Shown one piece after another: positions 4,180 through 62,133 of a DNA stretch of 64,000 nt. Numbering within the stretch: position 1 is the first letter of the stretch; each line of letters opens with the position of its first letter. The position numbers and the translations under genes are program-made. The stretch lies in NCBI GenBank assembly GCA_963833425.1, contig CAWHXP010000007.1, positions 64,001 to 128,000 of the forward strand. The letters are read 5' to 3'. Source of the stretch: an uncultured Methanosarcinaceae archaeon (lineage in GTDB: Archaea > Halobacteriota > Methanosarcinia > Methanosarcinales > Methanosarcinaceae). Below the pieces are notes generated by a model, which worked only from the letters and a program-made list of their open reading frames with translations, was not told the DNA's origin and searched no databases.

Positions 4180-4510
4180 ATATACACAGGTTTTATCACA
4201 AAATCTATTGTGGCTTAAAATTATATTAATCAATATTTTATCAAAGAGAAAAAAAGATTATAACGTACCTAAACTTTCTTACTGATCTTAAACTTGAAGA
4301 TTAAGCTTGAAAAAGAATATTAAAAACGTCTTTTGATTCATTCTCAAATCTTTTTACGGTAATTGAAAAATTGAGTTTCTGTTCAGTTTATTCGTAGTTT
4401 CTTTTGTTAAAAGTACTATCTTATTATTTTTTTTAAATTTCTATTTACGATTGTGATTTGGGTTAATTAATTCAAAGTGTTCCATAGTCCAGATGCTCTA
4501 CGAATTACAT
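4180..4510 (+). repeat. Dispersed ~330-bp repeat, inverted copy at 18735-19066; probable mobile-element remnant
   Basis: Core GAGAAAAAAAGATTATAACGTACCTAAA...CTTACTGATCTTAAACTTGAAGA matches the reverse complement at ~18945-19000, with more degenerate homology on both sides. Confidence 0.7.
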
Positions 4511-5005
4511 AAGCTCTATAAGCTCCATGAGTCATATATTAGCCACATTTCTTATTTTGTATGGAACTTAGTGAATCAAGAGATTTCAGCACAAAAAAAA
4601 CGGTGTGTGTTTGAGATAGTAGAAAACGCACTCGAAGTTATCGACTGATGGAGACAATCACCTGTTTGCTATAATTCATGATATAAGGACTGCATGATCA
4701 TCATACTAATTAGTTTAAGTTAGTACTATTTAAAATATACTTAAAAATATATAATTAATTAAATCCAGTTAATTAATTAAATCCATTTATAATTTATGGG
4801 TTTTCCGTACACCTTATAGCAGACTTTTCAGCTGGCTGCAGATATCTCGTCATCTGGCAGCTAACAAGATCAATATTAGATGCCCGCTCATCCGTATTAG
4901 GCGCCTTCCCGAGTACCTGGTGATCTGCGACGATTTAATATCTCAATGTCACCGGTATTAGTCACTGAGAGGCTCTTCAAAACAGGAACGCCAACGTGCC
5001 AAAAT

Positions 5006-5305
5006 TCAGGAGCTTCCGCCTTCTGGAGTACCTGGTGATCTACGACGATTCAATATCTCAACGTCACCGGTATTAACGCCGCTGGGTTGCTCTTCAAATA
5101 CAGGAACTCCCTTGTCGTAATATAAAGGAGTATCGCTGGTAGTAATGTGGCCGGGCAGGTCTCTATCATAGTAGGTATGATAGTTACCGGGACCTTGATA
5201 TATGTGGTCTGCACTCGCCAATATAACTGTCAATGGTACTACTAAAAGGATTGCAAACGAAATAGTTAGTACCTTTTTCATTTTACTAGATAATTGTTTT
5301 AACAT
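5006..5305 (-). CDS. Small secreted protein with the conserved 32-aa leader; possibly truncated by a frameshift
   Basis: RBS AGGAGTG, leader MLKQLSSKMKKVLTISFAILLVVPLTVILASA; the C-terminal unit is repeated out of frame at 4897-5000. Confidence 0.65.
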   Translation of the reverse strand: MLKQLSSKMKKVLTISFAILLVVPLTVILASADHIYQGPGNYHTYYDRDLPGHITTSDTPLYYDKGVPVFEEQPSGVNTGDVEILNRRRSPGTPEGGSS

Positions 5306-5896
5306 TTATTTCACTCCTATTATAAATAGACAAAAAAATTTTTAGATTATGTTGTTGAATGTTTGCTCAATCAACAAATTGAACTCTTATCAATAAGTAA
5401 ACGACCAAAAATTGAGGTTCATCGAATAAAATACTTTTAACTTTAAACGGAATGTATATTTTATTATATATCGATTACATGTTCATGATTTTCAAAGCAC
5501 ATACACGTGATTTATTTGATCTAACTTAATTTTATTTTAGAGAATTTCGATAAACCACAATTATTGATTTGTGTATGTATATCTTGGGACAATTATTTGA
5601 AATTATTTATAAAAAATATAGTTTCTAAACAAAAAGTCTTTTCCAATTAAATATTTTAACATTGAACAACAATTAAATACAAATTATGTAATATTAAATT
5701 TAGGAATGGTACTCATTTTTTTCATTACTCACTTTTCAAAAAAATATTTTAAAATCTAACGTAAGATAATATTATTCTTATTTATATAGATGCGACTATG
5801 TCACTCACTCGCTCTGAACCGTGAAGGATCCAAATCCAGGATACATAGGCTTTAGCACACAAAACTACGCATTTATGAAACAAGGAAAAGAAACAG

Positions 5897-6892
5897 CTCT
5901 GTGGAAATCCTAAATTTGATGTTAATATTTTTATAATTTTTTGTTTATGTTGTATGTATTCACTTAATTTCAATCTCCTTCACTTGATAAATGAATTTTT
6001 TTTGCCCCTAGTGATTCTCCTAATTTTCTTTTAACTACAGAAAATATTGTCTCCACAATATTTGTTTGATTATATCTAATTTTGTCAAAGACCAGGTTCA
6101 ATTTTGTTCTATATTTTAACTTATTTTTTCCTTTTTCTATCTCTTTTACAGGTGTGATTGAACCTGATTTCATTTCTCTCTCTAATTAGGGAATGCATTT
6201 TTTCAGAATTGTATCCCTTATCCACTACATAACAATCAGACTTTCCCATCTTATTTGATTGCCTTATCAGAGCATTTTGCATGTTTGATTTCATGGTCTG
6301 TTTTTTGACTAATTTTTCATCCCAATATTACCTTTTTACTTGTGTCTATTGATATTGAAGTTCCCAGGAAGTTTCTTCGAAGTTTCCAGGTTCTTCTGGA
6401 ATAATAATAACTTGCATATAACTCGTAAATCCTGTTGCATCAATCGCTGCAATAGATACATTTCCTTCATATGAGTAAAACAACTTTAGAATCCTTGACA
6501 GAAGAAGGTTAGATAGAGAGATGGGAACCCTGGGTACAAACTTTTGAAAGGTAATGAAATGTGAAATCTTATCAAGAGCAAGTTTTTCTTTTAAATAGCT
6601 CATACGGTCAATAATTTCTACAAAATTTTGATAGTCTGTGCTATATACTCCTTCGATAAAACCAGTACAAGAAGCTGATGCCAGGTATAAACGTGTTTTG
6701 AATACTTGCAAGAATAAATCTTCGGTCTCGAAGACTAACAGTTTCAAGATTGGTATCAACAAATTTAATGTACTTATTAAACTTCAATATTGAATGTTCC
6801 TTCGTTTTTAGTGGAAAAATAAGAAAAATATTATAATTTGGCAGTTATGATACTTTAATGTAAAAGTTCAATTTAGAGCATTCTGACAGAGC
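5897..6892 (-). mobile_element. Degraded IS5-like DDE insertion sequence (family A, copy 1)
   Basis: Fragments AAIDATGFTS, YVVDKGYNSE and QTNIVETIFSVVKRK; imperfect terminal IRs GCTCTGTGGAAAT / ATTCTGACAGAGC; many frameshifts. Confidence 0.8.
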
Positions 6893-7695
6893 TAAAAATT
6901 CCATAGATTATAAACGACATTTTGCTTAATTTTCTGTTAAATCGCAAATTTCACGGCTCATTAGGTCGAAAATTTGATCTCATGAGAACCGAATTCTATA
7001 CAGTATACAAAAATTGTGTTTCAAATTTACACTAAATTCGCTACGTTAATTTTATCGCAGTGTACTGAAAGGTCTGTAAAATCACAAGTGTCTAGAAATT
7101 GTTAAATCGAAAATCTTACTCAGAAGAAAGATTAAATAAAATAATTAGAAATTTGACTTCGCATTTACAGTAAATTTGCGGTGCTGTTCATTTTTTGCAA
7201 GAAAAACCTTACTTAGAATCTTGATAAGCCATTAATTTTTCAGGAGTCATATATTTTCATAAGTTTAGGATGAAATTTATGTGTTTACAGAAAATCTATA
7301 GTAATTATTAAGAATTGTTAACTTATGGTAATAATTGATTCTTATATTTAATTAATGATATATATTCATAATTAACATTTCTCAATATATTATATCTTTT
7401 GGATATCAATAATGTGATAATACAATCTGAAAGAATTCCTATCGGCATATCTGCTGATTTAACTATTTAATGATATATAGGTCTTTTAAAAATGAAGATT
7501 AACTAGCTGTTACAATACCAGTCTGTTAACAGGTTTGTGAAATACTAGTTAGTTAAATAATATTTCCACAGTGTATCGCCGATGGAAAGTGCATTGAAAA
7601 AGTAACAGTATGAAAAGTACATCCTAAAATGCATCATATCAGTTGTATCACATAAAAAGTGTATCAGAGTAAACAAAAATCAGGAGAATAAACCG

Positions 7696-8001
7696 GTGAA
7701 AAGACAAACAATTTCCAAAATAAGTAAAACAATAGGTGTTTTACTAGCTGTCTTCCTTGTAGTAACATTGACAGCAGTGGCAGCGAGTGCAAATTGTGGC
7801 GGTCATGGTGGCCATGGAGGTTGCGGAGGATGCGGAAGCAGTGGATGCGGAAGCAGTGGATGCGGAAGCAGTGGAGGATGCGGCAGCTGTGGAGGATGCG
7901 GAAGCAGTGGAGGATGTGGCGGCTGTGCACTGCCACCGATGCCACCGATGCCCATGTTTTGTGGCAGCGGCTGTGGATGTGGCAGCGGCTGTGGTTGTTA
8001 A
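7696..8001 (+). CDS. Secreted Cys/Gly-rich small protein (32-aa leader + 69-aa core with 15 Cys)
   Basis: RBS CAGGAGA, GTG start, signal peptide ending ASA, then CGG/CGSSG repeats, PPMPPMPM and CGSGCGCGSGCGC. Confidence 0.75.
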   Translation: MKRQTISKISKTIGVLLAVFLVVTLTAVAASANCGGHGGHGGCGGCGSSGCGSSGCGSSGGCGSCGGCGSSGGCGGCALPPMPPMPMFCGSGCGCGSGCGC

Positions 8002-8310
8002 TATCAAAATCTAATTACAGTAAATGGTAAAAATGAACACTTAAAAAATTATGAATTTAAACAATAGTACGTTCTGGATTTTTCCGCTCCCACTCTTTCT
8101 TCACCCATCTATATAATATCGTTAATATCGTAGGAAGCAACTCAGAAACGATGGAGATTTACAATTTATTATTAAGATCGCTGAAGCAATTTTATTGAAT
8201 AATTCTACGTGAATCTGAAACAATTCAGAAATGCATCTCAATTTTTCAAGTGGTCATTATTGAAAGTTTGAATCAGATACAGAGAATTATGGAAATTTAG
8301 CATCGAAATA

Positions 8311-8401
8311 AGAAGATTTCGATAAAATCCTGATTTTTACGAGTCATTTATATAATATTTATAAGCATATGACAAAATCAAGGGGTTTATCGGAATCCTC
8401 T
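8311..8401. mobile_element. ~90-bp MITE with IS5-type terminal IRs
   Basis: AGAAGATTTCGATAAAATCC ... GGGGTTTATCGGAATCCTCT; ends resemble the TIRs of the IS at 21243-22378. Confidence 0.6.
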
Positions 8402-10724: not shown

Positions 10725-10848
10725 AAAATGTACGATTTGTTTGCCTATTTGCCTAATATTATTCATTTAAAATTAGATTAATTTTTAAGCTACTCTCATA
10801 TTGAAAAAAATGATTAGAATTTTTGTGTACATCTGCAAAAAGTGTGAT
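10725..10848 (-). repeat. ~130-140-bp dispersed palindromic element (TGTGTACATCTG family)
   Basis: Reverse complement aligns with 47316-47452 and 59387-59525; shares AGTAGCTTAAAAATTAATCTA with the 47.3-kb copy. Confidence 0.65.
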
Positions 10849-18415: not shown

Positions 18416-18734
18416 ATTTATTCCCAAACTATCTTGGAGCTGATAAAATATGAGACTTTCTAATGTTTTTTTTAGACTGCAGAAATCTACTGTTGATTTC
18501 GCTTGCAATCGACTGTAATCTATCCGAAGCCCAGACGATGGTAAAATATCTCTAATTTTTGTCGCGCTACCTCATTATAAAAACAGGCTGCAAAATAAGT
18601 GTTTATCCAGACAAAACTTTTGCACATTTTGTTTCGTTGGCGCACAGTTTTCGTATCAAAATCTATGAATTTCCTAAGTTCCATCTGGGATAAGAAAATA
18701 TTCCAGATCTTATTACTCATGTAGTTTGTGGGAT

Positions 18735-19066
18735 CTATTGAGCATATGGATCTCCTGGAACACCTTAAACTAATTAAACTAAGGTATACTCATCAATAGA
18801 AAATATCCAAAAAAAAATAATTATATAGGACTCTAAAAAAACTAAAAACATGAATAAACTGAATCAAAAACTCAATTTTTCAATACCGTGAAAATATTTG
18901 AGAAAGAACCGGTAAAAACTTTTTTGATATTCTTTTTATGCTTCATCTTCAAGTTTAAGATCAGTAAGAAAATTTAGGTACGTTATAATCTTTTTTTCTC
19001 ATTGATAAAATAGCGATTAATATAATATTGATACATACATAGATTTTGCTATGAAATTTGTGTATC
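18735..19066 (-). repeat. Inverted copy of the 4180-4510 repeat
   Basis: Reverse-complement homology to 4180-4510. Confidence 0.7.
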
Positions 19067-20639: not shown

Positions 20640-21240
20640 CATGTTAAATTCGTATTTCTCAAATCTCGAGATTTCAAGAATCTGCTGCCGTATATAATAT
20701 AATGCACTCAGCAGGGTACCAATATTTCTGATTCTATCTCTCCTGCGTAGGGGTGAATATTTTCTTCAAAGGTTTTTAGAAGTTTTGGATCAACGTTGTT
20801 TAGAAAGTAAGTGTCCATAATCAGGATGTTTGAGATCTGCTCTTAGAAATCTGCAAGTTCTCTAAGCCAATCTGTAGCTCTAAAACTTGCTTCAATATAT
20901 GCTTATCGAGAAACATAAGGTAACCAAAAATAGTATTTATGAGCTCCTCAGTTAGCCTGTTATCTGGAAATTTTATTGGGAAACGCTCAAGGAATGTAGG
21001 ATCTGTATAATCCGATAAAATCGTTTCAGACTTGCATAACGCAGGAAAGATTCTGGAGATCGGGCTATTAAGCACTGCAGTAACATAAGGATACTTACTG
21101 GGATCTTTGAGAACAATCCCACAGCCGTTTCTAAAAATGTGGTTTCCAATAGCATCGTATGTAGCCTGGAGATGTTAACCGACAATTGTAGTGATTTTAG
21201 GAATATAAAGATATTCCAGAGCTCTGATCCTTTTATACTA
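20640..21240 (-). pseudogene. C-terminal (TaqI_C-like specificity) remnant of a type IIG/Eco57I-like RM methyltransferase
   Basis: ALEYLYIPKITTIVG*HLQATYDAIGNHIF...YPYVTAVLNSPISRIF...FLERFPIKFP; the 5' part is cut off by the IS5 element at 21243. Confidence 0.55.
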
Positions 21241-21242
21241 TA

Positions 21243-22378
21243 GAGAATTTCGATAAACTCCATTCTCTTGAGCATGGTTAGCTTTAAATTTGTAAACATT
21301 TATGTATATTCATGAAAACTCTTACTGATTTTGCTCTTAAAGAAGAGTATAAACGTCTTGAATCTGTTGGAGATAAGCTTGCTGAAATTGATTCCTTAAT
21401 TGATTGGAAAACTTTTCTTATTATTCTTGAGTCTATGTCTATTAACAAAACCGTTTCATGAGGGCGACCTGAAACTGATGTCATTGTGATGTTCAAAATG
21501 CTTGTTTTACAACAATGGCATGGGCTCTCTGATTTTGAACTTGAGAAACAGTGTATAGATCGAATTTCTTTTAGAAAATTCCTTGGTTTTCCTGAATACA
21601 TACCTGATAGTACTGCTGTATGGCTATTTAGGGAGAGAATTATCGAGAATTTCAAAGAAAATATGGGGAAAGTTGCAAAGCCAACTTGATGCTCTGGGTT
21701 TACAGATAAAGCAGGGAATGATTCAGGATGCTACTTTTTATCCATTCAGATCCAGGACATGCAAAAGCAGAGAGATGAGGCAAAAACAAGAATAAGCAGA
21801 GACGGAACATGGACAAAGAAGGGAGGTAAGTTTCACTTTGGATATAAGTTTCATAATATAATAGACATAGATTATGAGCTGATCAGAAGATTCAAAACAA
21901 CAACTGCGTCAGTACATGATTCGTATGTAGATATGACAAAGGAAAATGAAGTGGTTTATAGGGGCAGAGGATACTTTGGAGCAAAAACTAAAGGGTATAA
22001 TGCAACAATGAAGAGAGCGGTCAAAGGACATACGCTGGGAATAAAGGATATATTAAGAAATAAGAGAATTAGCTCAGAAAGAGTCCCAGGAGAAAGAGTT
22101 TATTCAGTAATGAAAGAAATTTTCAAAGCAGGAAGAGTTTTTGTCACTACTGTTAAAAGAGTAAATCTAAAAATGTTGTGTACGGCTTTTTGTTATAATC
22201 TCCATCAATTGAGGAAATTGAAAATAAAAAAAGTATATTGAAGATAGCGGAAGCTATCTTTAAAATCAAAGAATTGAGAATAAAGTAAAGCCAAAAAGAG
22301 GAATTAAATAGAGAAATTGAGGGGAAGATCTGAGAAATTCCTGCTAAGAAATAAAATCCGAAGTTTATCGAAATCCTC
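21243..22378 (+). mobile_element. IS5-family insertion sequence, transposase disrupted (family B)
   Basis: TIRs GAGAATTTCGATAAACTCC / GAAGTTTATCGAAATCCTC; MKTLTDFALKEEY...S*GRP...KMLVLQQWHGLSD, IQDATF, FGYKFH; internal stop and frameshifts. Confidence 0.9.
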
Positions 22379-22527
22379 CTTACTTTATTTACAAAACAAA
22401 GTTCCAAAAATAGAGAATAAATTAACTTTTTACTGCGTGTGTGAGCTGCTACCATGTTAAGAAAGTTGCTTAGCTGAGTAGTACAACTTCCTTTTGATCC
22501 TCATATCAAACTGCTCTTGTAAATCAG

Positions 22528-29792: not shown

Positions 29793-30642
29793 GGTTCCGT
29801 TGCAAAAAATCCTTTCTAATGATACAATAGAATAAAAAGAAAACCAAAGATAGCAACTGCTATCTAATTCCTTTAAATGGAAGCATTATGAAGGAGAAAT
29901 TATCCTATTGAATGTAAGATGGTACTTAAAATATGCATTAAGTTATAGAAATTTAAAGGAAATGATGGCAGAAAGGGGAGTAAAAGTCGACCATACAACA
30001 ATCATGAGACGGGTACATCAATATTCCCCTGAAATAGAAAAAAAAATAAGAAGATATTTAAGACCAACAAATGATTCGTGGAGAGTTGATGAAACCTATA
30101 TCAAAGTAAAAGGTAAATGGAAATATTTTTACCGAGCAGTTGACTCAAATGGAGATACAATTGACTTCATGTTAAGTTCAAAACGAAACCGAAAAGCTGC
30201 GAAGAGATTTTTTAAAAAAGCTTTAAGTTCTAATCATAATCAAACTCCAAGAGTAATAACCGTTGATAAAATCCAGCTTATCCACCTGCTATAGATAAAC
30301 TAAAAATTGATAAAATACTATCTAAAAACGTAGGCATTCGACAAATCAAGTATTTGAATAACATTATAGAACAAGATCACAGATCTATAAAGAGAATCAT
30401 TAATCCAATGTTAGGATTTCAGTCTTTTCGATCTGCTAAAGACTTTAAAAGGAATTGAAGCTATAAATATGATCAAAAAAGGACAAGTAATCGATCTAAA
30501 TTACTCTGTTCTTAATGAAATCAAATACATTAATCAATTGTTTGGCATAGTTTTATATTGTTAGTATATTTTCCTTGAATATTTTGTTTTTATTAATTAC
30601 TTATAGATTTACATATTTTTTTGAAGTTTTTGCAACGGAACC
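29793..30642 (+). mobile_element. IS6-family insertion sequence, transposase frameshifted (copy 1)
   Basis: TIRs GGTTCCGTTGCAAAAA / TTTTTGCAACGGAACC; FKWKHYEGEII, WRVDETYIKV, YRAVD, NNIIEQDHR; frameshift at TVDK. Confidence 0.93.
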
Positions 30643-30685
30643 GTTTTTGGTATATACTCCGATTCTAAAAAAACTAAAGTGATTT

Positions 30686-34761: not shown

Positions 34762-34830
34762 AATCGAAAAGTCTACCTAGGGTCTTTGAGCCTCATTTAT
34801 GATGGTTTTACTTCTTGTTTTACCTCTTTG

Positions 34831-35680
34831 GGTTCCGTTGCAAAAAATCCTTTCTAATAATACAATAGAATAAAAAAAATCAAAGATAGCAACTGCTATC
34901 TAATTCCTTTAAATGGAAGCATTATGAAGGAGAAATTATCCTATTGAATGTAAGATGGTACTTAAAATATGCATTAAGTTATAGAAATTTAAAGGAAATG
35001 ATGATAGAAAGAGGAATTCAAGTTGATCACAGTACTATAATGAGACGGGTACATCAATATTCCCCTGAAATAGAAAAAAAAATAAGAAGATATTTAAGAC
35101 CAACAAATGATTCGTGGAGAGTTGATGAAACCTATATCAAAGTAAAAGGTAAATGGAAATATTTTTACCGAGCAGTTGACTCAAATGGAGATACAATTGA
35201 CTTCATGTTAAGTTCAAAACGAAACCGAAAAGCTGCGAAGAGATTTTTTAAAAAAGCTTTAAGTTCTAATCATAATCAAACTCCAAGAGTAATAACCGTT
35301 GATAAAATCCAGCTTATCCACCTGCTATAGATAAACTAAAAATTGATAAAATACTATCTAAAAACGTAGGCATTCGACAAATCAAGTATTTGAATAACAT
35401 TATAGAACAAGATCATAGATCTATAAAGCGAATCGTTAATCCAATGTTAGGATTTCAGTCTTTTAGATCTGCTAGTAAGACTTTAAAAGGAATTGAAGCT
35501 ATAAATATGATCAAAAAAGGACAAGTAATCGATCTAAATTACTCTGTTCTTAATGAAGTCAAATACATTAATCAATTATTTGGTATAGTTTTATAATGTT
35601 AGTATATTTTCCTTGAATATTTTGACTTTTATTAATTACTTATAGATTTACATATTTTTTTGAAGTTTTTGCAACGAACC
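34831..35680 (+). mobile_element. IS6-family insertion sequence, transposase frameshifted (copy 2)
   Basis: Direct repeat of 29793-30642; right TIR lacks one G (GCAACGAACC). Confidence 0.93.
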
Positions 35681-38406: not shown

Positions 38407-38625
38407 TTGTAGCCAACCAGGATTGTCAAGGTAATTTTCCAGTTTTTTTATTTTTATTCTGTATACCTATAGTGGTGCCAGATGCCCAGGAAAGGAGACA
38501 TTTTATCAATTTTTGGCTTTTTGATTTATTTGAGTTGTAGAATTGTTTAAAATAATGATTATTTTTTGCGATTCAATACGATATTAAAAAATATCCAGGA
38601 AAGTTTTTTTCAGCTTTAGAACATT

Positions 38626-39748
38626 CCGATTTACTTATATTTTTCTCCGCATGAATCCGGCCTAAATCTTTCGCGCTAATTTTCTGTGTTTGACTCGATT
38701 TTTTTATCTGGCTTTTTATTCTTTGATTTTCAACGCTAGTCCCCGATATCCTTAAAATACTCCTTTTATTTTTAATGTCATAAAATGATAGATATTATGA
38801 CAAAAAGCTGTACACACCATCTTTAGATCCACTTTTTGAACATTAGCGACAAAAACTTTTCCTGCTTTGAATATTTATAGCTACTGAATAAATTCATTCC
38901 CCTAAAGCTTTTTTCAAGATATTCTCTTGTTTCATAATATACCACTCCTTCCCAAATGATACTCTTTTAGTGCTCTTTTCATCATTGTATCATAACCTTT
39001 TGATTTCGCTTTTAGCATCTTTTGTCTCTGTAAACCTTTCATTTTTTTCGGATAAATTTACCTTTGAACCATGACATGATTTAGTTGTTATTTTGAATCT
39101 TCTGATTAGCTCATAATCCCGGACTATTATGCTATGAAGTTTGTATCTAAAGTGTGGATTATCACGTTTTTAGTCCAGGCTCCTTCTCTTCTTCTCTTGT
39201 TTTCGCTTCATTTACTCGAGGTTTATCCGATTTTTCATATACAGGATCTGAATCGATAAAGTAGAGTTCTGAATTAATACCTTTTTTATTTTCAAAACAA
39301 GGTACTTAAATTGACTTTTTAGCTGCCCCCATATTTCTTTTTCTTTGCATTTATCAATAATTCTCTTTCTGAATGGCCAAACTGTAATACCGTCTAGTAT
39401 GTATTCAGGGAAATCAAGAAATTTCTCTAAAAAAATTCAATCAATAATTTGTTTCTTAAGTGCAAAGTCGGAAAGACAACGCAATTGCTGTAAAAAAAGT
39501 ATTTTAGACATAATAATTGTGTCATTTCCATATCCGCCTAACAAAACTATTTTGTTACAAATGTATGAAATCAAATTGATATGAAAAAATTTCAATCAAT
39601 TAATTAATCAATTTCATCAAGTTTGTCTTCACCTGACTAAAGACATTTATATTTTTCTTTAAGAGCAAAATTAGTCAGAGTTTTCATGAGAACAAATCAA
39701 TATTAAGAGATTTAAACTACCCAATAATCAAGCATAAAAGTTTATCAA
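38626..39748 (-). mobile_element. Heavily degraded family-B IS5 remnant, inverted twin of 44382-45504
   Basis: Homologous to 21243-22378 (MKTLTNFALKEKYK...) with many stops; reverse complement nearly identical to 44382-45504. Confidence 0.88.
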
Positions 39749-39831
39749 GATACAGTACCTGAATTCTGGATCACTCCCTAGTTCTTTCTTCAAACAACTT
39801 TTTTCCTGAAAATCCAGTTTCTCATCTAAAA

Positions 39832-44090: not shown

Positions 44091-44381
44091 GTAGTTTTCA
44101 CCTGAGTCCTCAATAAACCTAAAGGGATTTTAATGTTTCTGTTCTTCCGGTATCTGAAAAACCTATTTTTATAACATAAAGTTAATTTCTGATATTCTAT
44201 TAAGTGATTGATGTTTTCAAGATTGAGGTTCAATTTGAAGAAACTTTGAGTTTTTATTCATTGAAACATGTCTCTTTAGCTCACTGAGACATAGAGCAAA
44301 AAGGCTGAAAATAATATTATAAGGGTATCCCGAAATAACATTAAACAAATAATATGGAACGGTCATTATTTTTAGAAAATT

Positions 44382-45504
44382 TTGATAAACTTTTATGCTT
44401 GATTATTGGGTAGTTTAAATCTCTTAATATTGATTTGTTCTCATGAAAACTCTGACTAATTTTGCTCTTAAAGAAAAATATAAATGTCTTTAGTCAGGTG
44501 AAGACAAACTTGATGAAATTGATTAATTAATTGATTGAAATTTTTTCATATCAATTTGATTTCATACATTTGTAACAAAATAGTTTTGTTAGGCGGATAT
44601 GGAAATGACACAATTATTATGTCTAAAATACTTTTTTTACAGCAATTGCGTTGTCTTTCCGATTTTGCACTTAAGAAACAAATTATTGATTGAATTTTTT
44701 TAGAGAAATTTCTTGATTTCCCTGAATACATACTAGACGGTATTACAGTTTGGCCATTCAGAAAGAGAATTATTGATAAATGCAAAGAAAAAGAAATATG
44801 GGGGCAGCTAAAAAGTCAATTTAAGTACCTTGTTTTGAAAATAAAAAAGGTATTAATTCAGAACTCTACTTTATCGATTCAGATCCTGTATATGAAAAAT
44901 CGGATAAACCTCGAGTAAATGAAGCGAAAACAAGAGAAGAAGAGAAGGAGCCTGGACTAAAAACGTGATAATCCACACTTTAGATACAAACTTCATAGCA
45001 TAATAGTCCGGGATTATGAGCTAATCAGAAGATTCAAAATAACAACTAAATCATGTCATGGTTCAAAGGTAAATTTATCCGAAAAAAATGAAAGGTTTAC
45101 AGAGACAAAAGATGCTAAAAGCGAAATCAAAAGGTTATGATACAATGATGAAAAGAGCACTAAAAGAGTATCATTTGGGAAGGAGTGGTATATTATGAAA
45201 CAAGAGAATATCTTGAAAAAAGCTTTAGGGGAATGAATTTATTCAGTAGCTATAAATATTCAAAGCAGGAAAAGTTTTTGTCGCTAATGTTCAAAAAGTG
45301 GATCTAAAGATGGTGTGTACAGCTTTTTGTCATAATATCTATCATTTTATGACATTAAAAATAAAAGGAGTATTTTAAGGATATCGGGGACTAGCGTTGA
45401 AAATCAAAGAATAAAAAGCCAGATAAAAAAATCGAGTCAAACACAGAAAATTAGCGCGAAAGATTTAGGCAGGATTCATGCGGAGAAAAATATAAGTAAA
45501 TCGG
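44382..45504 (+). mobile_element. Heavily degraded family-B IS5 remnant, inverted twin of 38626-39748
   Basis: Same lesions as the twin; identical 79-aa shadow ORFs at 39345 (+) and 44546 (-). Confidence 0.88.
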
Positions 45505-46239
45505 CATCTTTTCTTGTAGTTCTACCAAAAAAAATTAAAGCATTGGTAAAACTATTCAGCCTGACCAAAAAAATACCATAGCCATCTTACCAAGGTTCAA
45601 CGTACAAGTTTCAGCGAGCTGATTTTATTTAGCTGTCAGCTAAAATATTGTTTTTCAGTTTTCCGTCAATGAATAATCAGAACCATTTGTTGCATCAAAA
45701 TATATTTCAGAAATTTTATTTTTTGTAGGTGATAAGTGATCAATAAGTTAATATTAATTAATCAACAGTATAATAATTATTGATATTGATGGGAGTTAAT
45801 TAAATTGTAATACTCATAGAATAAAATTAACACTTTATCATCAAGAATGATTTTATAATCACTTAACAAAATTTATTCACTGATCCAAAAATTAGAGATG
45901 AACATGGAAAGTACGGGAAAAAGCTGGAAAAAGATAGTATGAGAGAAATTTTTCAATTGCTTTCCGTGCTTTTCTTCGTTCAATTTTAAATTCTAAAAGC
46001 AGTGAGAACATGTGTGCACTTAATAATAAATCAATTTTTATAAAATATTTAAGTTTTATTTTTCATTAGAGGACTAAAAGTTGAAAAAGAAAATTTAGGA
46101 AATCTTGTAATAATTAAAATTCTTGTAATAATTAATAAATAATAATAAAAAATTAATGATTAATAATTATGCATGCTAATTTATAATGATATATCTTGAG
46201 ATCGATTTGAATCCCAACTAATGTGCAGGATGGCTGAAA

Positions 46240-56550: not shown

Positions 56551-58375
56551 AAGCCTCAGAACTCGTATGTTTCAAACTAAAAAGTAGATGCTTGTTGGCC
56601 ATAAAAGGGATCCTTATACGGGGTCAGTAATTAAATTTTCTTGATACAAGTATGTTTTCTTTCAGAGGCATACCTTCGATTACATTATAAGACATTTATT
56701 ATTTCTTTTAAATGCCTTTCTAATGATATATTTGAGTTCTTTGCGCACAGGTCGTTCTTGAAGATATGAGTCATAAATATACTTCAGAGCAACTCCTGCA
56801 ATCAAACCTACACATATTCCAGCTACTATCCCCATTAATGTCCCCATTAACAGACTGCCTGATATATATTTCTCCGTCAGATCTATACCCCTAATAAATT
56901 TTGCTTATTTTTATTCATTCAACCTCAATCCTAAACACATAAAAGGAATTATTTGTTTGCTTTAAAGTAGTTTTTGGTAGGGTATTGAAATATAAATGCT
57001 GATACGATTTCAAAGGTTTCAAGGTGTCCTCATCGATCATCCGGTTAATGCAAAAAAATACTAAGAAAAAAATAGGCAAATTCTAGTAAATTTTATGATT
57101 TAGATTTTTAATTGAGAAAGAATCCGAACATTTTTATTCTGATGGAAGAAATTTGGATTTTTGTGAAATTTACCTTTCATGAAGCAAAACTCCAAAATTG
57201 ATACCCCTTTCACCTTGAAAAGCATGTTAGAAGGAGTTTGATAAGAGGAAAAATTCAATGTTAATTTTTGATTGTAACATACCACTCAAATTAATATTGA
57301 ATAACAAATAACTTGACTGCTTAATATCGATTCATTCAGCAGAAGAAGAAGTGAGGACAAAATTGAATATTTTTATTTATTTTTGTATGCATATTTGTTT
57401 ATAGTCAAAAAGTAACTGATACTATTTTAAAATGAAGTTAATGGAAGATATATTAAGTTTAAGAAATGGCTTTAGTGAAGTGTTTAAATGTTATAGAAGA
57501 ATCGAATTTCTGATTCCAAAATTAGTTGGTGAAGATCTATGCTCTTTTAATGCTCATATGATTAAATCTGAGATTAGTAAACTTAAAGAAAAAATTAAAC
57601 ATCTTGAAAAAAAAGGACTAAAAGATTTATTGGAACAATTAATGGAGGAAAAGTTCATTTTGAACTTGATTATTTGGACATAATTTCTTGTAAGATTATA
57701 ACGTTGAAATTGTCCCTCACTGCAATAATCTGACATTCCGCAGATGTTCTCTTAACTGATAAATTGTTATCTGGATAGTTAGCTGTAATCATTCAGGTAA
57801 ACCTCTATATTTGTCATATTTTTATAAAAGTATGTCTCCGAATCTTTAAAGTCAGAAGTTTTTCAACTCCCCCTAGTATTTTGAACGTGTATATATTTTT
57901 AAATGTAAATTTTAGATTTAATCATCTGATATTTTATAAAATTTCAGAAAAGAGGCGCAGCAGATTATTTCTTTTCATTTTTTTCTTTGATTCTTTTTTT
58001 CGACTTTAAATTCATAATTGTTGTATAGATGTGCGTGCTTTATGATAAATCTATATCTTCAAGTCTTTGACTGCTTATTTTCGCGGAGGTTAAATAAATA
58101 TTAATTTATTTTATATTTACAATAATATAGTTAAGTACATATATTTCTGTATATATTATATTCTTAAAATAATAATACTCCGACGATACAAATAAAATCA
58201 TCTTTCTGACGTCTAAGCCGATGATCGAATTTACCAATATCGTAGTCTATTAGGACCTAATAGCATGATTGATGAATATCGTTTAGGCGATGGATCTACC
58301 GACTGGAAGATGATTAAAAAAATCAAGTGTTTTAAGATTGTATCAAACTAAACAAAAATTAGGAGAGTGTAATAA

Positions 58376-59278
58376 ATGGGGAAACAATTTTTTGGAAGAA
58401 TAAAAACTACATTGACCATCTTGATGGCGATATCTTTCATAATGCCACTGACAGTTCTATCAGTAAGTGCCGATCCAAGTGATGCATTTGGAGATGGAAA
58501 TGGAAGCTGCTGCCCCGGAAACTGTGGCCCTGAAGATTTTGGCCCTGGAAACTGTGGCCTTGGAAACTGTGGCCTTGGAAACTGTGGTCCCGGAAACTGT
58601 GCCCCTGGGAACTTTGGACCTGGATACTTTGGCCCCGGAAACTGTGGACCTGGAAACTGTGGACCTGGGAACTTTGGACCTGGATACTTTGGCCCTGGAA
58701 ACTGTGGACCTGGGAACATTGGCCCTGGGAACATTGGAGCCGGAAATATAGGACCTGGGAACATTGGATATGAAAATATTGGAGCTGGGAACATTGGAGC
58801 TGGGAACATTGGAGCTGAAAATATTGGAGCTGAAAATTTAGGAGCTGGAAATTTAGGAGCTGGAAATTTAGGAGCTAGAAATGTCGGAGAAGGAAATGTT
58901 GGGAACGGAAATACTGGAGATGGAAATGTTGGAACTGGAAATGTAGGAGCTGGGAATATTGGAGTTGGAAACGTTGGATATGGAAATGTTGGAGCTGGAA
59001 ACATCGGAGCTTGGAACATTGGAGCTCGAAATATGGGAGATGGAATAGTGGGAGATGGAATAGTTGGAGCCGGAAACATCGGAGCTCGAAATATAGGAGC
59101 TGGAAGATTTGGAGATGGAAACTTCGAACAAGGAAGTTATGGGCCCGATGAACATTTTATACCTAGGAGCCACAAGCACGTTATATCCAGGGGTCACAAA
59201 CATAAGTCAAAAGTTCATGGCCATAAATCAAAAGGTCATGGGCATAAAACAAAGGACCACGGTCATTACAGATATTAA
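58376..59278 (+). CDS. Secreted pentapeptide-repeat (GxGNx) protein with His/Lys-rich tail
   Basis: RBS AGGAGAG, 32-aa leader ending VSA, ~41 five-residue units (15-bp DNA repeats), C-terminal tail with 11 His. Confidence 0.85.
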   Translation: MGKQFFGRIKTTLTILMAISFIMPLTVLSVSADPSDAFGDGNGSCCPGNCGPEDFGPGNCGLGNCGLGNCGPGNCAPGNFGPGYFGPGNCGPGNCGPGNFGPGYFGPGNCGPGNIGPGNIGAGNIGPGNIGYENIGAGNIGAGNIGAENIGAENLGAGNLGAGNLGARNVGEGNVGNGNTGDGNVGTGNVGAGNIGVGNVGYGNVGAGNIGAWNIGARNMGDGIVGDGIVGAGNIGARNIGAGRFGDGNFEQGSYGPDEHFIPRSHKHVISRGHKHKSKVHGHKSKGHGHKTKDHGHYRY

Positions 59279-61140: not shown

Positions 61141-62133
61141 ATGTCTCTATTTGACCCATTCCTCATATCAAAGGCACTCTGGCAGATTGGAGTCCGAAAA
61201 CGTCCTTTTGTTCTTTCGCACGCTGTAAATGCCCACTGCAATATGAGCTGCAGTTTTTGCGAGCACTGGAAAAAAGGAGGGTATGAACCTACAAAGGAAG
61301 AGGTTTTTAGGCTATTAGATGATGCAAAAAAATTTGGGATAGGGGTTTACAATGCCTGGACCGTGGAACCTCTTCTCCGAAAAGACCTCCCCAAGATTAT
61401 GGCTCACGTCAAAGAGCTTGGGATGATAACTTCAATGGTAACAAACGGAAAGCTGCTCTGCGAAAGAGCTGAAGAGCTTGGAGATGTGGATTATCTTTCT
61501 GTTTCCGTGGATGGAATAAAGAGCTATAAAGAAATCCGGCAGACGGATTTCGGAACATTGCTAAAAGGAATAAAAAAAGCCATTAAATTTAGAAAACTTC
61601 AGAACCAGAAAAATCCTATCCTAATGAATTGTGTACTTATGGGGAAAAATCTTGAAGACATTGAGGCTCTTATTTTTCTTGCAAAGGAGCTGGGACTAAA
61701 AATTTCTTTTGAGCCTATCCACAAGTTCCCAGGCATCAGTGAAGTCGTTTGGAAAAATATCGGAATTAGTGATATCAAAAAGTTCCGCAGCACCGTTGAC
61801 CGCATAATAGAACTTAAAGAACAAGATTATCCTATCATTAATTCCAAAACCTACCTTCGAATGGTTAGAGAAGGAAAAATGGACTGTAAATGCAGAGCCA
61901 GCGGTTTTATTATGGATGTGACTCATGACTGTACTGTTGAAACATGTCGCGTGCAAAACGAGCCTCTTGGAAATGTGATGTTGGATGGCTTTGAGAGTGT
62001 ATGGAAAAACTCGGAAGAGCGTAAAAGCAAAATTGTACAAAATTGTAAAGGTTGTCTTTTTTTTGGATATGTGGAAAATAGCTTGATGCAGAGCCTCAAT
62101 CCCGAAGTTTTGATGAATTACGAGTGGATTTGA
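61141..62133 (+). CDS. Radical SAM protein with C-terminal SPASM/twitch-like Cys region
   Basis: CNMSCSFC, EPLLR, VTNG, SVSVDG, then CRAS...TCRV...LGNV...CKGC. Confidence 0.9.
   Translation: MSLFDPFLISKALWQIGVRKRPFVLSHAVNAHCNMSCSFCEHWKKGGYEPTKEEVFRLLDDAKKFGIGVYNAWTVEPLLRKDLPKIMAHVKELGMITSMVTNGKLLCERAEELGDVDYLSVSVDGIKSYKEIRQTDFGTLLKGIKKAIKFRKLQNQKNPILMNCVLMGKNLEDIEALIFLAKELGLKISFEPIHKFPGISEVVWKNIGISDIKKFRSTVDRIIELKEQDYPIINSKTYLRMVREGKMDCKCRASGFIMDVTHDCTVETCRVQNEPLGNVMLDGFESVWKNSEERKSKIVQNCKGCLFFGYVENSLMQSLNPEVLMNYEWI

Follow-up and report, generated by a model that had tools for sequence, protein, structure and literature searches.

What joins three unlinked genes whose products share a start of 32 residues and continue into unrelated cores? 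The question is raised by a stretch of 64,000 nucleotides from an uncultured Methanosarcinaceae archaeon (contig CAWHXP010000007.1, positions 64,001 to 128,000; the whole stretch is called the window), in which genes a, b and c (Table 1) begin with a constant leader. An earlier interpretation made from the letters alone (the sequence-only reading) had seen in this leader and the untranslated nucleotides before it a reusable module that feeds diverse repeat peptides to the exterior, and it had leaned towards precursors of ribosomally synthesized and post-translationally modified peptides (RiPPs). The reusable start and leader module on diverse, often repetitive cores was recovered in our analysis, export itself being predicted. 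The leaning towards RiPP precursors was not upheld; the leader heads enzymes as well, and no maturase recurs beside the family genes. We consider it likely that the three genes belong to a family held together by an inherited start and Sec-type signal module, which has come to stand on many unrelated, mostly small bodies.

The leaders of the three open reading frames (ORFs) align over 32 columns with zero gaps, just as had been described. The residues named as shared are also the ones that we found: M1, Q4, A18, L25, T26, S31 and A32 do not vary, and Lys or Arg stands at positions 3 and 8. The leaders had been listed in an order that does not follow the coordinates: 5006-5305 starts with MLKQLSS..., 7696-8001 with MKRQTIS... 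and 58376-59278 with MGKQFFG.... A profile of the three leaders, run against 791 six-frame segments of the window, retrieved genes a, b and c alone (E 3e-17 to 5e-20; next E 0.58). A DNA profile of 25 leaders from other genomes, built without the window copies, matched exactly three window sites (E 1e-23, 2e-18 and 2e-17; next 0.31). Neither the protein nor the DNA profiles revealed further or decayed leader copies in the window, and all three leaders are intact, with a Shine-Dalgarno site, a start codon and the AxA motif present in each.

The size of the family was determined by searching 1.84 billion representative proteins with the 32-column three-leader profile, which yielded 231 protein clusters at E<=0.001. 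The sequence-only reading had looked for many matches with divergent cores from a profile of the leaders, and this is what was obtained. The family statistics given below refer to the best 150 of the 231 clusters. In 126 of these 150 the leader begins at residue 1, and positions -3 to -1 read ASA in 62 and VSA in 43 (105 together). The listed members are short (median length 86 aa; at least 160 aa in one of the 150), and their 140 cores of at least 15 aa were sorted by BLASTP into 116 groups, of which 102 have a single member, which confirms the earlier picture of a constant leader before unrelated, often low-complexity cores. Judged by the profile scores, the resemblance of the three leaders is not a matter of chance and marks a true family.

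Carrier genomes were sought with one peptide pattern, [AT][IV][LS]L[AV]V[LF]FVV, which returned 41 loci; 37 of these are Methanosarcina, Methanosarcinaceae or Methanosarcinales records from 10 genomes, so that the expected presence of the family in other Methanosarcinales was confirmed. The remaining 4 loci are bacterial and were set aside as chance matches. Most carrier genomes were assembled from metagenomes of bog, fen and soil, and strain Ant1 is among them too. A profile of 112 library leaders located 56 leader sites in the archaeal loci, with up to 4 in one 8-kb locus (L002) and 20 over 12 loci of a single genome. The G+C content of these loci is 28-41%, mostly 31-38%, which is similar to that of the window. 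The window does not come from the same genome as any retrieved locus (identities mostly 70-87%, one 65-nt piece 92%). As far as the retrieved genomes show, the family would be confined to low-GC Methanosarcina/Methanosarcinaceae; with a single, narrow peptide pattern behind the genome scan, this range should be read as a minimum. No description of the leader family was found in the literature, including the accessible text of PMC4158269, PMC11456600, PMC12704099 and PMC3387779, and the main text (supplements aside) of two M. mazei small-proteome papers does not contain the terms 'signal peptide' or 'secreted'.

The leaders are related at the level of DNA. Mean nucleotide identity, computed from 28 ungapped leaders (378 pairs; random expectation 0.316), was 0.685 over the 96 nt of the leader, 0.443 over positions -40 to -1, 0.304 over -80 to -41 and 0.281 over the first 96 nt of the core. 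The common block spans the Shine-Dalgarno site to codon 32, and identity falls to random right past the ASA or VSA triplet, so the homology of the module has sharp edges. Where two leaders carry the same amino acid, the codon is the same in 66.8% of comparisons versus 32.3% expected from codon usage (n=6056); the similarity is therefore one of descent and not of convergence. Across paralogues the leader has a dN/dS of 0.54 (dS ~0.65), a moderate constraint, and Q4, T26 and A32 are near-invariant over 112 ungapped leaders.

Part of the non-coding sequence belongs to the common block. The sequence-only reading had pointed to a 28-nt motif shared by genes b and c, and the two copies are indeed identical at 25 of 28 bases; the pattern obtained by merging them has 2 matches in the window and 0 in 100 shuffles. 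The similar end claimed for the third gene was also found, with ATAGGAGTGAAATAA immediately 5' of the ATG of gene a. The idea of an upstream module held in so far as a non-coding part is common to the family: GGAGTGnAATnAATG occurs at 8 sites in 665 kb (both strands searched), and all 8 are family starts. It was overstated for the full 28-nt motif, which is a subfamily trait and not family-wide, conservation across the family being limited to about the last 15 nt before the ATG, essentially GGAGTGAAATAA. The TGTATC element stands at a fixed upstream distance in 14 of 59 family starts versus 2.0 expected and is doubled in gene b and its relatives; it may be part of the core promoter or an operator. 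Across the whole window Rfam gave 0 matches at the gathering score, and the upstream regions therefore hold no known riboswitch or other known RNA. A scan for sigma-70 promoters and terminators, which is unsuited to an archaeon, gave nothing above shuffles, and a tRNA scan found none.

The properties of the leader are those of a signal peptide. The n-region is basic in all three genes (K3, K8, K10 and K11 in a; K2, R3, K8 and K11 in b; K3, R8 and K10 in c), residues 12-27 are uncharged throughout with a hydrophobic stretch of ~15-17 residues, and the leaders end in ASA, ASA and VSA, with the AxA motif at -3/-1. In the AlphaFold models the leader forms a helix (residues 3-36 in a, 5-27 in c). 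A Tat signal was ruled out, as no RR is present in the three window leaders. A lipobox was likewise rejected for the window genes, position +1 being Asp in a and c and Asn in b, where Cys follows at +2. Export through Sec and cleavage after the AxA motif are thus predicted for the three products.

The nature of the cargo bears on the same point. Among longer proteins (99-2000 aa), 32 carry the same leader, and they include, at 46-69 bits, five isochorismatase-family proteins (PF00857), three GH46 chitosanases (PF01374), two of which have PKD domains, and one globin (PF01152). A cupredoxin, thioredoxins and a PKD protein encoded in the retrieved loci begin with it too. Since the same leader stands, with similar scores (59-69 bits), on ordinary secreted enzymes and domains, it is an export signal and not a RiPP recognition leader, and we take it to be a stereotyped signal-peptide module of the Sec type that is specific to this lineage. 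Isochorismatase, chitosanase and the other cargoes cannot derive from one another, and the module must then have been joined to unrelated genes, which for the enzymes is a strong inference. For the low-complexity cores an equally good route would be duplication followed by repeat turnover and frameshifts. By eye, three pairs of library members (P0050/P0057, P0068/P0070 and P0015/P0040) have the same start and then a divergence of the frameshift type; P0050 and P0057 share the leader and the first core residues before they diverge. The three chitosanases with the Methanosarcina leader (P0165, P0168 and P0170) are 289-495 aa long. A secreted chitosanase is unusual in a methanogen and hints at an interaction with fungi or with cell walls that contain chitosan.

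The leader is a special class and not the default signal peptide of the lineage. With a crude filter, 79 signal-like ORFs were counted in the loci and the window; 42 carry the leader and 37 do not, the latter including larger secreted proteins. The sequence-only reading had held that a leader matching ordinary secreted enzymes and S-layer proteins equally well would be a generic signal peptide. In part this is what was observed: enzymes do carry the leader; an S-layer-like protein of 381 aa from the same loci uses a different signal. A second conserved-leader family, M-[IV]-[SN]-K-x-K-L-Y-x-I-A-L-V-S-x-A-M-I-L-M-L-V-N-I-V-x-A, was seen in the same loci (plus strand at L001:5019-5399, L012:5651-6004, L023:1902-3065 and L032:3925-4149; minus strand in L030, at 7672-8061 in reverse-complement coordinates). 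It too stands on unrelated cores, among them Cys/Gly repeats (CGCGDQTCG) and a 385-aa protein with weak Ig-like Pfam matches; a regex search of the window found none.

The cores have an unusual composition. Compared with long ORFs of the same genomes, Trp is enriched 2.9x, His 2.5x, Cys 2.4x and Gly 1.95x, and entropy is low (z<-2) in 61 of the 140 cores. Themes recognised by eye are WGHG repeats ending in CGWWNNWC, CSHSH, HD, FDRD, YPNYPS repeats and GYGGWGG stretches. Cys occupies position +1 in 39 of 149 listed members, about eightfold above the 3.4% of Cys in cores overall, and in 16 of these 39 it is the sole Cys. Such members fit a lipobox and may be lipid-anchored; lipobox proteins are encoded in most euryarchaeal genomes, according to the accessible text of one report (PMC3387779). 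The cores most likely function in metal binding, in redox reactions or as envelope or matrix material, as their composition suggests: His, Cys and Asp point to metal ligands, and Gly, Tyr and Trp to matrix-like material. The cupredoxin and thioredoxin domains exported with the same leader are consistent with a metal or redox role. Genes for CbiM (PF01891) and PDGLE (PF13190), components of Ni/Co uptake of the ECF type, were noted at L002:6924-7978, L004:1778-2506 and L007:2660-3709. His-rich members (cores EPYHD...) lie 0.3-3 kb from them, in what is one syntenic locus of three genomes, a lead for metal capture and not a proof. The window contains no CbiM/PDGLE; the sole tblastn matches are of low complexity and lie inside core c. 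An antagonistic role is left open because chitosanase and NlpC-like cargo carry the same leader.

The cores of the three window genes differ in kind. All were said to be built from tandem repeats, and this applies to b and c, where arrays were found; a repeat search detected no tandem array in core a, and the only repeat linked to gene a is a second copy of its 3' end, 59 nt long, just beyond the stop codon. The end of the L002 orthologue of gene a matches the segment 4896-4960 at 92% identity. Two of the cores had been called rich in Cys, His or Gly; this holds for core b, with its Cys and Gly, and not for core a. Core a is conserved in orthologues (L002:4806-5096, P0051, P0093 and P0064; 54-64% identity), and its dN/dS against the L002 copy is 0.70, from one pair. 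AlphaFold, run with 5 sequences, gave the product of gene a a mean pLDDT of 62.7 with a small beta region at 40-85; Foldseek found 0 matches of this model in the PDB at E<=0.001 (best E 0.74). The nearest of the listed library matches to gene b is P0001, with a near-identical leader and a 15-aa Cys/Gly core. The upstream region of gene b (7225-7812) matches L020, L021 and L034 at 73-78% identity, and these loci carry Gly/Trp/Cys cores. In the ESM Atlas the best score for gene b was 0.76, below the level counted as a lead.

Core c consists of Gly/Asn pentapeptides with a His/Lys tail and matches Pfam Pentapeptide_2 (PF01469) in 6 stretches (E 4e-29, 100.7 bits, cut-off 26.4). This was the only Pfam family among the three window proteins at E<=1, a and b matching none, and NCBIfam gave 0 families at the same threshold. 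A search with residues 1-60 of gene c against proteins of 165-525 aa found no relative, and AlphaFold gave no usable fold for gene c from its single sequence (mean pLDDT 37.4). Further ORFs overlap core c at 58348-59079 (minus), 58467-58751 (plus) and 58868-59203 (minus), and core b likewise at 7664-8030; such ORFs arise from repeats that lack stop codons, and gene callers could be misled by them. The sequence-only reading had taken it as telling that the genes remain open. For b and c this is weak evidence of function, because their repeats stay open in other frames as well.

Table 1. Positions of the three genes, their leaders, upstream elements and repeats in the window.
Feature	Position	Strand	Description
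Gene a	5006-5305	-	99 aa, ATG start, from the ORF list; leader MLKQLSSKMKKVLTISFAILLVVPLTVILASA, then a 67-aa core without repeats
Leader-coding part of gene a	5210-5305	-	32 codons; from the leader alignment and the DNA profile (match 5320-5210, E 1.3e-23)
Shine-Dalgarno site and spacer of gene a	5306-5317	-	GGAGTGAAATAA, abutting the ATG
Degenerate copy of the 3' coding end of gene a	4902-4960	-	Past the stop codon; 92% identical to 5017-5075 over 59 nt
Gene b	7696-8001	+	101 aa, GTG start, from the ORF list; leader (V/M)KRQTISKISKTIGVLLAVFLVVTLTAVAASA, then a repeat core rich in Cys/Gly
28-nt motif of gene b	7660-7687	+	TGTATCA element and AGGAGA Shine-Dalgarno site
Second TGTATCA of gene b	7644-7650	+	16 nt upstream of the first; doubled likewise in L020, L021 and L034
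Tandem repeats of core b	7825-7998	+	Periods 18/36 at 7825-7927, 9 at 7931-7952 and 18 at 7960-7998
Gene c	58376-59278	+	300 aa, ATG start, from the ORF list; leader MGKQFFGRIKTTLTILMAISFIMPLTVLSVSA, then ~40 G-x-G-N-x pentapeptides and a His/Lys-rich tail
28-nt motif of gene c	58339-58366	+	
15-nt tandem array of core c	58517-59121	+	~34 and ~32 copies in two overlapping rows; encodes the pentapeptides
Tail of gene c	59201-59253	+	21-nt repeat, 2.5 copies; encodes HGHKSKG-type sequence

The explanation that we favour can be put as follows. The family is defined by its 5' end and not by the mature protein. Its module of ~110 nt consists of a Shine-Dalgarno site and spacer (GGAGTG-AAATAA) and a 32-codon Sec-type signal peptide, with an n-region M-[LGR]-K-Q-x-x-S-[RK]-[IM]-K-K, an h-region ILLAVxFVVSLT and a c-region ASA or VSA. 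As a piece of inherited DNA, the module has come to be joined to many unrelated coding bodies, which would be sent through the Sec translocon and released when signal peptidase I cuts after ASA or VSA; the members with Cys at +1, about one quarter, may be lipid-anchored instead. Most bodies are short, fast-changing and of low complexity, enriched in Trp, His, Cys, Gly and Asp, and would most likely act outside the cell in metal binding, redox reactions or the envelope or matrix. How they diversify we infer from the repeats and diverging pairs, which suggest that they are built and rebuilt by tandem-repeat expansion and frameshifts.

Other explanations were weighed against this one. In RiPP or bacteriocin-type precursors a maturase or transporter recognises the leader and the cores become bioactive peptides; the constant leader, the variable cores rich in Cys or in Gly and His, and a radical SAM gene ~1.9 kb downstream of gene c (61141-62133, plus strand) would all be in keeping with this. 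However, the leader is a classic hydrophobic signal peptide with AxA that is also found on enzymes of 250-500 aa, and the three window proteins have no RiPP-related Pfam or NCBIfam match. Neighbouring ORFs of at least 90 aa from the 37 loci and the window (38 sequence sources) were clustered. The most widespread neighbour family, another secreted protein, was present in 5 of the 38 sources, families of enzymes or transporters in 4 loci at most, and no radical SAM, peptidase or ABC transporter family in at least 3 loci beside family genes. The co-occurring maturase or transporter for which the sequence-only reading had suggested a search was thus not found, and the radical SAM gene is probably unrelated to gene c, because no counterpart recurs near family genes. 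The enzyme cargo and the lack of a recurring maturase or transporter both speak against a RiPP leader, and we judge RiPP precursors highly improbable. Alternatively, the leader could stay uncleaved and anchor the proteins in the membrane by their N-termini, with the short cores displayed at the cell surface. The long hydrophobic stretch, modelled as a helix, would suit such an anchor, but the prevalence of ASA and VSA and the near-invariant Ala at -1 follow a signal peptidase I pattern for which an anchor has no need, and this makes the anchor very unlikely. A specialised sorting signal, in which the n-region and the SLT residues direct the cargo to a particular route, site or enzyme and the constancy of the leader is due to this requirement as well, would add to the explanation favoured here and does not exclude it. 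In the same loci the signal peptides of other secreted proteins are quite unlike this leader, Q4, T26 and A32 hardly vary, the cargo is strongly biased to small proteins, and the second conserved-leader family suggests that leader classes matter in this lineage. The YSIRK/GXXS signal peptides of Gram-positive cocci offer a precedent. Those of the YSIRK type are highly conserved and direct septal secretion according to the accessible text of two reports (PMC11370438, PMC5962339). On the other hand, there is no conserved partner gene nearby, the dN/dS of the leader does not indicate strong constraint, and the surplus of shared codons means that much of the similarity is accounted for by descent alone; we therefore hold a sorting role to be conceivable but doubtful.

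Finally, much of the family, possibly including genes b and c, could be non-functional, with duplicated 5' ends and slippage-prone repeats giving rise to debris or proto-genes. Several observations go in this direction and at the same time weigh against the explanation that we favour. Leader-only ORFs exist (L007, 30 aa, and L013), leaders are frameshifted at L004 5041, L015 6827 and L016 1440, and P0013, P0020 and P0049 resemble truncated isochorismatase genes (compare P0156), so that debris probably accounts for some of the 'small' members. The repeats keep cores b and c open in several frames, gene c is an orphan without a detectable relative of similar length, and the window is rich in remnants of insertion sequences (IS) and low in coding density. 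Against a family of debris stand the intact leaders of all three window genes, orthologues of gene a with a conserved core in at least 4 other sequences, relatives of gene b with the same core type in other genomes, and the roughly eightfold enrichment of Cys at +1, which is hard to explain without function; debris as the general answer is unlikely. The favoured explanation has further points to contend with. Core a appears only weakly constrained, export and cleavage are predicted from sequence features, and the metal link is thin, consisting of composition and of one syntenic locus in three genomes. The constancy of the leader may owe as much to fairly recent descent as to a special requirement. 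The taxonomic range is a lower bound, and the family figures come from the best 150 of 231 clusters.

Several known systems resemble this family in one respect or another. Like the YSIRK/GXXS signals of Gram-positive bacteria, the leader is a conserved signal peptide found on many unrelated, often repetitive exported proteins and used beside ordinary signals. Unlike them, it belongs to an archaeal host, has no sequence similarity to YSIRK and no Pfam YSIRK match, its cargo is mostly shorter than 150 aa without a cell-wall anchor, and its conservation is a DNA homology over the whole length including the ribosome-binding site. A sorting role of the archaeal leader is hypothetical. Signal domains of the KxYKxGKxW type are a further Gram-positive parallel. 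The Vsp, Vlp and Vsa families of Mycoplasma have a conserved 5' non-coding region and signal peptide before divergent tandem-repeat bodies, with several genes per genome; all are lipoproteins with switchable promoters. The leader family has the same arrangement of a conserved 5' region and signal peptide before divergent bodies, but Cys at +1 is limited to 39 of 149 listed members and to none of the window genes, and the genes are scattered or lie in small islands. In conotoxins, amphibian skin peptides and the Gly/His-rich families of ticks, a conserved signal precedes a hypervariable mature part that is often rich in Cys, Gly or His. These animal superfamilies evolve by duplication with accelerated change of the mature part, and the signal often has its own exon, whereas the genes described here are prokaryotic and continuous, and their leader stands on ordinary enzymes too.

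Core c also has a partial counterpart, as its five-residue period of the N-x-G-x-G type, above the Pfam cut-off for Pentapeptide_2, recalls the PPE-MPTR proteins of mycobacteria. It differs from these in the absence of a PPE domain (PF01469 being the only Pfam match), in a signal of the Sec type and not type VII secretion, and in the archaeal host, and the match may reflect repeat composition and not descent. The leader family belongs to none of the YSIRK, Mycoplasma or animal families, because there is no sequence match, the host is from another domain of life, most members are not lipoproteins and enzymes are among the cargo; the parallels are functional. The family can be described as a conserved-signal multigene family in an archaeon, in which the ribosome-binding site and the signal peptide are conserved at the DNA level.

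The surroundings of the three genes were recorded as well. The window has 35% G+C and carries methanogen genes, including DUF1616, an HdrD-like CCG protein and DUF1847; IS remnants are numerous in it. IS copies or remnants at 21235-22403, 38614-39751 and 44367-45510 are 71-81% identical to many loci, several look fragmented, and a DDE transposase domain (PF01609) lies at 21759-22241. Intergenic elements of ~80-200 nt (8311-8401, 10735-10844, 18643-18887 and 4412-4597) are repeated in the window and share 70-87% identity with many Methanosarcina loci; they are possibly MITE-like or regulatory repeats. The segments 29793-30646 and 34829-35680 lie ~5 kb from each other and have the same counterparts in L041 and L003 (80-82% identity), which suggests a duplicated segment. 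An ORF of 90 aa at 35182-35451 (minus strand) has a signal-peptide-like start, MKKTNIIIISLYLSVFILTSVVHA, and a Ser/Pro/Lys-rich body, and is not a member of the leader family.

Signal peptides are usually deemed interchangeable and poorly conserved; here one is conserved to the codon, along with its ribosome-binding site, across hundreds of unrelated cargoes. A more speculative extension, to which we give limited credence, is that a portable start-and-export cassette repeatedly joined to new or borrowed sequence acts as a nursery for secreted proteins. The hypervariable peptides so produced might serve in the capture of trace metals (Ni, Co, Zn, Cu) or in antagonism, and the leader and TGTATCA might mark a dedicated class of export and regulation, which would be the equivalent in archaea of YSIRK-type sorting or conotoxin-like superfamilies. 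The hint of metal binding in the cores matters because Ni, Co, Fe and Zn are all needed for methanogenesis. Overall, the family offers a handle on sorting classes in archaea, on the origin and turnover of secreted genes and on the extracellular products of peat and soil methanogens. The leader is a ready profile for small secreted proteins that are missed by gene callers and family databases, and it is a candidate secretion tag for Methanosarcina genetics.

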